From Escherichia coli (GTDB lineage Bacteria; Pseudomonadota; Gammaproteobacteria; Enterobacterales; Enterobacteriaceae): a DNA stretch of 64,000 nucleotides. Below the pieces are notes generated by a model. That model made no database searches. It worked only from the letters and a program-made list of their open reading frames with translations, and was not told where the DNA came from. The translations under genes were made by a program, and so were the position numbers. Of this stretch, positions 39,278-47,892 are shown in pieces. The stretch lies in assembly GCF_001677475.2 (NCBI RefSeq), contig NZ_CP015229.1, one strand, 5' to 3'. Positions within the stretch are counted from its first letter, which is position 1. Each line of letters opens with the position of its first letter.

Positions 39278-39979
39278 CTACAACTTCAGAATTTCTTTCA
39301 CAAACGGAATGGTCAGCTTACGTTGCGCGGTAATCGACGCACGATCCAACTGATCCAACGTCATAAATAGCGTGCGCATTTCTCTGTCGAGCCGCTTCAG
39401 CAAGAAACGCCCCACATCTTCCGGCAGTTCAAAACCACGCAAACGCGCGCGTAACTGTAGCGCCTGCAACTTATCTTCATCAGAAAGTGGCTGCAATTTG
39501 TAGATCTGCCCCCAGTCGAGACGCGACGCGAGATCCGGTAATCCAAGATTCAACTGCCGCGGTGGACGATCGCCGGTGATTAACAACCGTGTTTTGCCCG
39601 ATTCCAGAATTCGATTGTAGAGATCGAAAATCGCCATCTCCCACAACTCATCGCCTGCAATACACTCAATGTTGTCGATACAGACCAGCGACAAATGCTC
39701 CATACCGTCGAGCACTTCCGGAACAAACCAGGTGCGTTTATCCAGCGGGACATAGCCCACCGCATCGCCACGCTGCGACAATTCCGCGCAAGCCGCGTGC
39801 AGCAGATGGCTGCGCCCCGCGCCTTCGCGTGCCCAGAGATAGATGTAACCGCTATGTTCCTGACGCAGCACGTTTTGCAGCGCGGCCAGTAAAGAGGAGT
39901 TATCCCCCGGCCAGAAACTTGCAAAGGTTTCGTCGTCAGGAAGATAAAGTGGCAAAGAGAGCTGTGCCGGTGTGTTCAG
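39278..39979 (-). CDS. hda: DnaA regulatory inactivator Hda
   Basis: ORF track gives 248 aa from an upstream start; functional K-12 Hda is 233 aa from a non-AUG (CUG) start at ...LNTPAQLSL; end chosen accordingly. AAA+ Walker motifs present. Confidence 0.85.
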
Positions 39980-40073
39980 AGATACCTCAACCAGGATTTC
40001 ACAAAATCGCGAGAAGTTTACCACAGAATCCCATGATGTTTGAACCGGGCAGCAATACTGCCCGGTCGGTACA

Positions 40074-41363
40074 TTATTTGTCTGTTATATCCGCGTCTTC
40101 TGCGTCCAGCACCACTTCTTCAGGGCGCAGCACACTAATCAGTTTGAAGATCAAACTTAAGCCGATACCGACGATGGTCGCCAGCGCCATACCTTTCAAC
40201 TCCGCCGCGCCGATGTTTACCTTCGCGCCACTGACACCGATGATCAAAATCACGGAAGTCAGGATCAGGTTCTGTGCTTTGTTGTAATCCACTTTCGATT
40301 CGATCAAAACACGAATACCGGAAGCCCCGATGACACCATAAAGCAGCAGCGAAACGCCGCCCATCACCGGCAATGGGATCATCTGGATAGCAGCAGCCAG
40401 TTTACCGACGCAGGAAAGCAGGATAGCGAAAATCGCCGCCCCGCCGATAACCCAGGTACTGTAAACACGGGTGATCGCCATCACGCCAATGTTTTCCCCG
40501 TAGGTGGTGTTTGGCGTGGAGCCAAAGAAGCCGGAGATCACGGTCGACAAGCCGTTAGCAAACATCGAACGGTGCAGACCTGGATCGCGCAGCAGATCTT
40601 TTTTGACGATATTAGCCGTTACTACCAGGTGCCCTACGTGTTCGGCAATAACCACTAACGCCGCTGGCAGAATTGTCAGAATGGCAAACCACTCGAAGCG
40701 CGGCGTATAGAGGGTTGGCAGCGCAAACCAGTGAGCATTAATAATCGGCGTGGTATCGACAATTCCCATTGCGAAAGAGAGCGCGTAGCCCACCAGCACG
40801 CCAATTAAAATCGGGATAATTGCCAGGAAACCACGAAACAGCACGGAACCTAAAACCGTAACCGCCAGGGTGGTAATGGAGATGATGATGGTTTTGGAGT
40901 CTGGCGTTTGCCCTTCAGCCGGGAGTAAACCCGCCATACCGGCAGCTACGCCCGCCAGCTCCAGACCGATGACGGCAACGATTGCGCCCATTGCCGCAGG
41001 TGGAAACAGCACGTCCAGCCAGCCGGTCCCCGCTTTCTTCACGATAAAAGAAACCAGGCAGAACAGCACGCCGCACATAATAAAGCCGCCCAGCGCGACT
41101 TCATACCCCAACGGCAACAGTAACAATACCGGTGAAATAAAGGCAAAGCTGGAACCAAGATAAGCCGGAATTTTCCCTTTACAGATGAAGAGATACAGCA
41201 GCGTTCCAATACCGTTAAATAACAGTACAGTCGCCGGGTTAATATGAAATAAGACGGGCACCAGGACGGTTGCACCAAACATGGCGAACAAATGTTGCAA
41301 ACTAAGCGGGATTGTCTGTAAAAGTGGCGGTCTTTCACTCACCCCGATAGCACGGCGCGTCAT
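40074..41363 (-). CDS. uraA: uracil:H+ symporter
   Basis: ORF 40074..41405 trimmed to 429 aa ([15 protein letters not shown]...); NCS2-family membrane protein. Confidence 0.93.
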
Positions 41364-41402
41364 AGTATTATCCTCTGTATTATGTGTTATAGGCGCTTTA
41401 CT

Positions 41403-41431
41403 CAAAAAAAAGCCGACTCTTAAAGTCGGCT
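41403..41431 (-). terminator. intrinsic terminator/attenuator between upp and uraA
   Basis: On minus strand: aaagccgactttaagagtcggctttttttt directly after the upp stop. Confidence 0.75.
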
Positions 41432-41448
41432 TTAATTATTTTTATTCT

Positions 41449-42075
41449 TTATTTCGTACCAAAGATTTTGTCACCGGCATCGCCGAGGCCCGGAATAATG
41501 TATCCGTGCTCGTTCAGTCCCTGGTCAATCGATGCAGTATACAGTTCGACGTCCGGGTGCGCTTTTTCCAGCGCAGCGATACCTTCTGGCGCAGCTACCA
41601 GCACCAGAACTTTGATGCTGCTGCAGCCCGCTTTTTTCAGCAGGTCGATGGTCGCGATAACGGAACCACCGGTTGCCAGCATTGGGTCAACGATCAGCGC
41701 CATACGCTCATCGATGTTAGAAACCAGTTTCTGGAAGTACGGTACCGGCTCCAGCGTTTCTTCATTACGGTACATACCGACGACGCTGATACGCGCGCTC
41801 GGAACGTTTTCCAGCACACCGTCCATCATCCCCAGACCCGCACGCAGAATTGGCACAACGGTAATTTTCTTACCTTTGATCTGGTCGATTTCTACCGGGC
41901 CGTTCCAGCCTTCGATAGTTACTTTTTCCGTTTCGAGGTCGGCGGTCGCTTCGTAAGTCAGCAGGCTACCCACTTCGGAAGCGAGTTCGCGAAAGCGCTT
42001 GGTGCTGATATCTTGCTCACGCATCAGTCCCAGCTTGTGTTTGACGAGTGGGTGTTTGACTTCCACGATCTTCAT
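41449..42075 (-). CDS. upp: uracil phosphoribosyltransferase
   Basis: ORF 41449..42102 trimmed to 208 aa ([14 protein letters not shown]...); RBS GGAG. Confidence 0.94.
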
Positions 42076-42100
42076 ACTCTTTCTCCTTTGAGGGGCAGCC

Positions 42101-42114
42101 ACAAAAAAAATCGA
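42101..42114 (-). promoter_or_regulatory. upp initially transcribed U-tract (UTP-sensitive reiterative transcription site)
   Basis: Minus-strand GATTTTTTTTG lies ~25 nt upstream of the upp RBS. Confidence 0.55.
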
Positions 42115-42319
42115 CGGATTATACCTCCTTTCTTCAAGGCGGCAATATTATTTTCGTTGACTTTAGTCAAAATGATAACGGTTTGAGATAAAGTTATTTT
42201 ATATTCAAATGGTTATGGGAGAAGATTATTCCATCCGAAAACGATCCTTTGCCCTGGTACAAGTATTCTTTCGCCGCGCGCCTGGGGAAAAGACGTGCAA
42301 AAAGGTTGTGTAAAGCAGT

Positions 42320-42335
42320 CTCGCAAACGTTTGCT
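42320..42335 (+). promoter_or_regulatory. PurR operator (pur box) of purMN
   Basis: tcgcaaacgtttgctt, close match to pur box consensus, ~65 bp upstream of purM start. Confidence 0.75.
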
Positions 42336-42381
42336 TTCCCTGTTAGAATTGCGCCGAATTTTATTTTTCTACCGCAAGTAA

Positions 42382-43436
<1,055 letters not shown>

Positions 43437-47865: not shown

Positions 47866-47892
47866 GCGGGCCGACGAGAAATGTCGGCCCGC
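47866..47892. terminator. GC-rich stem-loop between convergent ppx and pdeF
   Basis: gcgggccgacgagaaatgtcggcccgc inverted repeat; weak T-tract. Confidence 0.55.

Follow-up and report, generated by a model that had tools for sequence, protein, structure and literature searches.

The upp-uraA locus

The site considered here lies within the window, by which we mean the whole stretch of Escherichia coli DNA that was analyzed, 64 kb long. According to its ORF list, upp, uraA and hda follow one another on the minus strand, and purM-purN run divergently from them, on the plus strand. These names—upp, uraA and purM—are the ones that RefSeq gives to the genes in MG1655 and in 99.7%-identical genomes. 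In the window, upp and uraA are separated by a spacer of 85 nt, and their coding features are as follows:

41449..42075, minus strand: upp coding sequence, uracil phosphoribosyltransferase, 208 aa (ORF list; RefSeq annotation of matching genomes)
42075..42073, minus strand: ATG of upp (sequence)
41451..41449, minus strand: stop codon of upp (sequence)
40074..41363, minus strand: uraA coding sequence, uracil permease, 429 aa, the operon's second gene (ORF list; RefSeq annotation)
41363..41361, minus strand: ATG of uraA (sequence)

The 1051 bases around the site are matched at 95% identity or better in 5424 of the 5426 complete E. coli genomes, the best match being 99.7%. The window strain differs from K-12—33 substitutions separate it from MG1655 over the 2.4 kb compared (98.6% identity)—but the promoter, the 5′UTR and the spacer are unchanged. 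From 42149 to 41834, a stretch that takes in the −35 and −10 boxes, the initially transcribed region, the 5′UTR and the start of upp, there are zero differences from MG1655, and the whole upp-uraA spacer is, base for base, that of MG1655. The difference closest to the promoter, T for G at 42150, precedes the −35 box by 5 nt. The promoter is the same element, then, as the upp-uraA promoter of E. coli K-12 (Tu & Turnbough 1997; Cheng, Dylla & Turnbough 2001). Primer sequences designed for BW25113 and printed in PMC11200800 match both the window's promoter stretch and its hairpin stretch exactly. The pairing of the two genes extends beyond E. coli: in the 60 Enterobacterales loci counted, a UraA homologue of 79–99% identity lies directly downstream of upp.

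Anatomy of the upp promoter

On the minus strand, the promoter and T-tract region reads ...GGTATAATCCGTCGATTTTTTTTGTGGCTGCCCCTCAAAGGAGAAAGAGTATG. Its parts are laid out in the order TTGCCG-(16 nt)-TATAAT-CCGTC-GATTTTTTTTG-TGGCTGCCCCTCAAAGGAGAAAGAGT-ATG, the ATG being that of upp, and a consensus-based promoter scan picks out the promoter, with 10 of its 12 positions matching. The individual elements are these:

42140..42145, minus strand: −35 hexamer TTGCCG, with a spacer of 16 nt to the −10 (promoter scan)
42118..42123, minus strand: −10 hexamer TATAAT, perfect (sequence, promoter scan)
42112..42102, minus strand: the 11-mer GATTTTTTTTG, which begins 6 bases past TATAAT, 37 nt ahead of the ATG of upp
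42112 and 42111, minus strand: the alternative starts G6 and A7, counted from the −10 box (positions from the sequence, use as starts from the literature)
42103..42110, minus strand: T8 tract (A8 in the template) of the initially transcribed region; the site of reiterative U addition, according to the literature
42102, minus strand: the G that follows T8 (sequence)
42076..42112, minus strand: upp 5′UTR, 37 nt (sequence)
42088..42082, minus strand: Shine-Dalgarno sequence AAGGAGA (sequence)

A sequence-only reading of this DNA had placed a T-tract right at the upp transcript start, in the interval 42101-42114. This is borne out: the interval encloses the 11-mer at 42112..42102. What is found is a sigma-70 promoter whose start lies directly before, or in, a run of at least three T's (TATAAT, 5 nt, GA, T8), placed before a gene of pyrimidine salvage, upp, with uraA downstream. 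Where sequence requirements are concerned, the adjacent start bases are present as well: G6 and A7 are the sixth and seventh bases past the −10, as in K-12, and in MG1655 (NC_000913.3) they correspond to 2,620,909 and 2,620,908.

Folding of the 53 nt that run from G6 into upp finds no significant structure (−7.5 kcal/mol, z = +0.68). Because the upp 5′UTR is unstructured, it holds no leader attenuator or riboswitch, and that candidate was rejected. A scan of 39900-42500 against Rfam finds nothing near threshold; its three sub-threshold matches, to terminator-like sRNA, have E-values of 0.2–0.4 and bit scores of about half the gathering score, and were rejected too.

Conservation of the promoter

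Loci were collected from one genome per species with a degenerate pattern for the N-terminus of Upp, a procedure that is blind to the DNA upstream, and 120 were obtained. In 68 of the 69 Enterobacterales species, the window included, upp is preceded by TAnnnT-N5-(G/T)(A/G)-T7..9; the sole exception is an AT-rich uncultured genome. Among the 68, the T run consists of eight T's in 31, seven in another 31 and nine in the remaining six, and is never shorter than seven or longer than nine. Since the T run must be long, according to the title of the 2001 paper by Cheng et al., selection upon its length is to be expected, and the restriction to T7–T9 is what these species display. The gap between the −10 and the G is 5 nt, invariably, and the T run is preceded by GA in 64 of the 68. 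The same design, with GA and six or seven T's, is present in six of six Aeromonas and five of six Photobacterium.

When a single sequence is taken from each of 30 genera, most columns of the block GCGGTATAATCCCGCGATTTTTTT show at least 90% identity—the −10 hexamer, too, is conserved to at least that degree—and most of the flanking columns show 30–60%. In other Enterobacterales, a weak −35 of the (A/T)TGGCG type occupies the matching position. The distance between the T tract and the ribosome-binding site (RBS), in contrast, is not conserved: the upp leader of Pectobacterium is approximately 100 nt long. A register that is fixed with respect to the −10 and a distance that varies with respect to the RBS tie the constraint to the start of transcription, not to translation.

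This bears upon a quite different interpretation of the tract, in which it is a U-rich element of the 5′UTR—one that binds S1 or Hfq, enhances translation or affects mRNA stability—or else a neutral, AT-rich stretch. U-rich leaders can enhance translation, as is generally known, and the number of T8 runs in the window is close to what chance predicts: six are found and 5.1 expected, so that the T run by itself is not significant. Even the 11-mer GATTTTTTTTG, found once against an expectation of 0.17, turns up at least once in 15 of 100 shuffles. In 68 of 69 species, however, the tract keeps its register with the −10, at exactly 5 nt plus GA, and its distance to the RBS varies widely; the published experiments, moreover, credit reiterative transcription with the regulation. 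We give this interpretation next to no credence. The compound pattern TATAAT-N5-GATTTTTTT, with one mismatch allowed, occurs once in the window against 0.01 expected, and to judge from the sequences compared, a T-tract held in register with the −10 across genera is far beyond chance.

Some relatives carry additional DNA in the leader. In Pectobacterium (L033, L062), one G+C-rich, hairpin-forming insert of about 70 nt lies between the T tract and the RBS, and Brenneria (L041) has two copies of the same insert. The insert comes directly after the T tract, ends in a small hairpin and T6, and brings the leader to approximately 100 nt or more. It could represent a repeat element, or perhaps a terminator within the leader.

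Within E. coli itself the tract varies somewhat in length. Exact matches to the 79-nt promoter stretch in complete E. coli genomes carry T8 in 4737 cases (87%), T7 in 439 (8%) and T9 in 19 (0.4%), and some of the length variants that appear in single assemblies may be homopolymer errors of sequencing or assembly. Carriers of the T7 allele include the type strain, ATCC 11775; several O157:H7 strains are among the 12 T9 genomes listed, of 19. The start bases vary also, if rarely. G6 is replaced by T (TATAATCCGTCTATTTTTTT...) in E. albertii (L013) and in one E. coli assembly, 16F5M1D1 (L005), and in these two the choice of start site, and hence the regulation of upp, should be altered. Natural variants such as T7 and G6 to T indicate that the exact arrangement of K-12 is not obligatory.

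Transcription starts and the UTP pool

At the K-12 promoter, Tu and Turnbough are said to have found, in 1997, that initiation at G6 leads to productive transcripts and initiation at A7 to AUUUUn, with A7 reportedly favored when UTP is high. Three papers (PMC7039003, PMC12709180 and PMC6245113) take up the same promoter, and each of them refers to Tu & Turnbough 1997 (PMID 9352914) as well as to Cheng, Dylla & Turnbough 2001 (PMID 11114920), the latter with a title stating that a long T.A tract is required for regulation. In PMC7039003, upp-uraA (5′-GATTTTTTTTG) appears beside pyrBI and codBA among the E. coli promoters that undergo reiterative transcription, and long reiterative RNAs are said to form at all three, with no switch back to canonical transcription. 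PMC12709180 describes how excess UTP causes transcription start sites to switch at codBA and upp, resulting in non-productive reiterative initiation, and PMC6245113 gives the same account in outline, with reiterative transcription at upp-uraA.

UTP-sensitive reiterative transcription with start-site switching is what had been proposed for this tract from its letters, and the proposal is supported: a sequence identical to that of K-12 is the published example in the papers just mentioned. Since the window's sequence is identical to the K-12 example, the mechanism claimed is the experimentally established one for this DNA. Two kinds of evidence are combined here. The sequence, its identity to K-12 and its conservation were computed for this work; the start sites, the stuttering and the dependence upon UTP come from the literature.

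The mechanism would operate in the following way. RNA polymerase bound at the promoter would be free to initiate at G6 (42112) or at the neighboring A7 (42111). At high UTP, initiation at A7 would be favored; the short AUU... transcript would slip back on the eight A's of the template, U would be added over and over to give AUUUUn, and these transcripts would be released before reaching upp. At low UTP, initiation at G6 would dominate, and the GAUUUUUUUUG transcript would keep its register and elongate normally, so that upp and uraA would be expressed when pyrimidines are scarce. The upp-uraA promoter serves as a textbook example of ‘repression without a repressor’, one in which the polymerase reads the UTP pool by way of start choice and slippage. 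As a T-tract promoter it is real, strongly conserved and already known. That it could be found again from sequence alone shows that the signal is recognizable, and adds no new biology.

Related promoters and the reach of the mechanism

The promoter of codBA (ATTTTTTG) follows the same logic, with alternative starts just upstream of a long T run, and there, too, excess UTP drives the non-productive, stuttering start, as at upp (PMC12709180; sequence from PMC7039003). It differs from upp in that its T run is shorter (T6) and its start bases and genes are different; codBA lies outside the window. The pyrBI (AATTTG) and carAB P1 (GTTTG) promoters resemble that of upp inasmuch as they serve pyrimidine genes and stutter, in a UTP-dependent manner, on a T run at the start. 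They differ from it in having three T's and one start site, and slippage competes directly with normal elongation. pyrBI has a leader attenuator in addition to reiterative initiation.

In Vibrio (GGTTTG) and Pasteurellaceae (AATTTG), the promoter of upp is closer to these three-T promoters than to that of upp in E. coli. None of the 20 Vibrio loci has the Enterobacterales motif; they have TATAAT-N5-(G/A)G-TTTG instead (L007, L011, L021, L029 and others). None of the 16 Pasteurellaceae has the motif either, and TAGAAT-N5-AATTTG, often followed by T6, or something similar is frequent among them (L009, L014, L028, L103 and others). In both groups the start region lies 40–60 nt upstream of the upp ATG. 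Their sequences suggest that upp may be subject to a different flavor of UTP sensing in these bacteria. The distribution of GA-T7..9, in Enterobacterales, Aeromonas and Photobacterium, versus T3 in Vibrio and Pasteurellaceae, maps the reach of the E. coli mechanism.

The hairpin between upp and uraA

Within the upp-uraA spacer lies a further element:

41404..41433, minus strand: hairpin AAAGCCGACT-TTAAG-AGTCGGCTTT followed by T8, in the 85-nt upp-uraA spacer (terminator scan, folding)

The sequence-only reading had this element, a hairpin plus T-tract between the two genes, at 41403-41431, which is essentially right; it is found at 41433..41404. The terminator scan gives it 11 pairs, five of them G-C, and a T8 tail; the loop is 3 nt in the scan and 5 nt (TTAAG) otherwise. 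Its folding energy is −15.2 kcal/mol (z = −3.98), a stability that none of 200 shuffles attained, and it persists when folded in a context of 186 nt. The core of the stem begins 18 nt after the upp stop codon, or 15 nt if the A-U extension is counted, and 40 nt separate the T8 from the ATG of uraA. With a G+C-rich stem, a short loop and a T run directly after, the hairpin is, to judge by its anatomy, an intrinsic terminator.

A second hairpin with a GCCGAC/GTCGGC core occurs in the window: GCGGGCCGAC-GAGAAAT-GTCGGCCCGC, at 47866-47892 on the plus strand, just past the ppx stop codon and without a T run. The pattern GCCGAC-N7-GTCGGC has two matches in the window against 0.27 expected. The core that these two hairpins share is probably a coincidence. 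The upp-uraA hairpin was considered as a repeated or mobile element, and rejected as such: there is a single copy of it per E. coli genome, and the ppx-side hairpin is unrelated.

Among the 60 Enterobacterales species in which uraA comes directly after upp, 59 have the hairpin in the form GCCG(A/G)C, a loop of 5–7 nt, G(T/C)CGG(C/T) and a T-run, the last being an uninterrupted T8 in 50 of the 59. Across these relatives, 97.2% of helix cells are paired, compared with 14–51% when the partner columns are slid. The stem is preserved in its very sequence and not in its pairing alone: four of its eight pairs are invariant, and three cells are compensatory. The changes that do occur are an A-U to G-C replacement in Acerihabitans, a closing pair of C-G for U-A, and others that make G.U on the sense strand. 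That the substitutions are compensatory or compatible with G.U on the sense strand suggests that selection acts upon the sense-strand RNA. A DNA operator for a dimeric regulator was rejected on the same grounds, since G.U compatibility is confined to the sense strand, and on account of half-site spacing, which is not constant but ranges from 5 to 7 nt.

Around the near-invariant stem, the loop, the flanks and the length of the spacer (57–533 nt) all vary. Different lineages have insertions on either side of the hairpin, with the hairpin itself undisturbed. The distance from the upp stop codon to the stem is 17–19 nt among the Enterobacteriaceae, E. coli included (15 nt if the A-U extension is taken in), 6–11 nt in 28 of the 59 species, and 73–179 nt in seven. 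The hairpin that follows uraA, which served as the control, is kept only within Enterobacteriaceae, and unrelated hairpins are found in its place in other families. Our impression from these alignments is that the upp-uraA stem may be constrained more tightly than an ordinary terminator would be; with a single control hairpin for comparison, ‘unusually conserved’ is an impression and not a statistic.

One locus of a different kind, L114, comes from a contig labelled as a Pedobacter MAG. Its upp is Enterobacterales-like and its uraA shares 81% identity with that of the window; a spacer of only 5 nt separates the two, and the locus is without both the hairpin and the upstream T-tract promoter. 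L114 is probably a mis-binned or rearranged contig.

What the hairpin does

That the hairpin modulates read-through into uraA, as had been suggested, is plausible. The most economical reading of its sequence, and the most likely, is that it acts as an intrinsic terminator at which some of the transcripts end. Partial termination there would result in more Upp enzyme than UraA permease, and the hairpin would provide the upp-only mRNA with a stable 3′ end. Neither upp nor uraA appears in the curated tables of 3′ ends from Term-seq (Adams et al. 2021) or in those from SMRT-Cappable-seq, and since these lists are thresholded, a missing entry is weak negative evidence. The best explanation of the locus as a whole, and one in which we have high confidence, is a sigma-70 upp-uraA promoter that is set by UTP without a repressor, together with a hairpin between the two genes that is most likely an intrinsic terminator.

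The hairpin might, at one extreme, terminate transcription completely, in which case upp would be monocistronic and uraA would be transcribed mainly from a promoter of its own within the spacer. It is strong enough (−15.2 kcal/mol, T8 tail); Vibrio upp, with no uraA downstream, is also followed by a hairpin and a T-run; and in several genera spacers of up to 533 nt leave room for a promoter beyond the hairpin. In E. coli, however, the interval between the T8 and the uraA ATG is 40 nt only, and the sequence past the hairpin is not conserved except for the ribosome-binding region. The promoter scan finds no promoter between the hairpin and uraA. The only other promoter-like match, 41462..41435, was rejected as an internal uraA promoter, lying as it does upstream of the hairpin. 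Andersen and colleagues reportedly described uraA, in 1995, as the second gene of a bicistronic operon. The unit goes by the name upp-uraA in the literature (PMC7039003). The 40-nt gap, the lack of a promoter-like site after the hairpin and the name of the operon together make complete termination quite improbable in E. coli.

Partial termination, the reading we prefer, could itself be either fixed or regulated. The rph-pyrE attenuator, according to what Bonekamp, Poulsen and Jensen are said to have reported in 1984-85, and Jensen in 1993, is intercistronic, modulated by UTP and coupled to translation. Like upp-uraA, rph-pyrE has a G+C-rich hairpin and a T run between a translated gene and a pyrimidine-related gene, all within one operon. 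The upp-uraA hairpin might be an attenuator of this type instead of a fixed partial terminator. At low UTP, the polymerase would be slowed at U8, and the trailing ribosome, as it ended upp, would block the hairpin and allow read-through to uraA; at high UTP, the polymerase would outrun the ribosome and terminate. This would be a second layer of UTP sensing, specific to the permease, and it could coexist with the promoter mechanism.

Several of the observations above fit such an attenuator: the T8, unbroken in 50 of 59 species, the stem that is near-invariant across the order while flanks and spacer vary, the replacement of the control hairpin outside Enterobacteriaceae, and the few substitutions, whose compensatory or G.U-compatible nature implies selection of the RNA. 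In the 28 species with 6–11 nt between stop codon and stem, the terminating ribosome would be near enough to cover the 5′ arm, and pyrE is a reported precedent in which all three properties—intercistronic position, modulation by UTP and coupling to translation—are united. As an attenuator would need, the spacer hairpin of the window follows a gene that is translated and belongs to the same operon, but the stop codon of that gene, 18 nt away, is probably not close enough for a ribosome to occlude the 5′ arm. The 17–19 nt typical of E. coli and other Enterobacteriaceae are, likewise, probably beyond the reach of the terminating ribosome, and the insertions of 73–179 nt between stop codon and hairpin in seven species mean that ribosome coupling cannot hold for every species. 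Over its last 60 nt, upp is rich in A rather than in U, and so contains no obvious cluster of UTP-sensitive pause sites. Support was looked for in the literature, and none was found. rph-pyrE differs, moreover, in that the E. coli upp stop codon lies 15–18 nt before the stem, and dependence upon UTP and translation is hypothetical at upp-uraA. Attenuation of the rph-pyrE type is, on balance, unlikely.

We are similarly doubtful of the wider proposition that the hairpin could be more than a passive terminator, whether as an attenuator that is UTP-sensitive, translation-coupled or both, or as the target of a sequence-specific RNA-binding partner. Were either the case, the uracil permease would come under a second layer of control, independent of stuttering at the promoter. 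The tight constraint upon the hairpin makes separate regulation of permease and enzyme a directly testable question.

Palindromes upstream of upp

Two palindromes in the divergent purM-upp region deserve mention. The first lies upstream of the −35 box:

42157..42170, either strand: FNR-type palindrome TTGAC-TAAA-GTCAA, centered at −51.5 from G6

The FNR-type pattern has three matches in the window against 0.34 expected. In most other Enterobacterales the matching position is occupied by TTGAT-N4-ATCAA, the FNR consensus, and a ChIP peak for FNR has been reported at upp, ‘activated by FNR in nitrite’ (Myers et al. 2013). The palindrome is possibly a second input to the upp promoter.

The other palindrome, GCAAACGTTTGC, is situated at 42323-42334, on the purM side of the divergent intergenic region, upstream of purM. 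We take it to match the consensus for PurR operators. Vibrio and Aeromonas loci have similar AAACGTTTGCG motifs upstream of upp, from which it seems that the divergent purM-upp layout and the putative PurR box are widely conserved.
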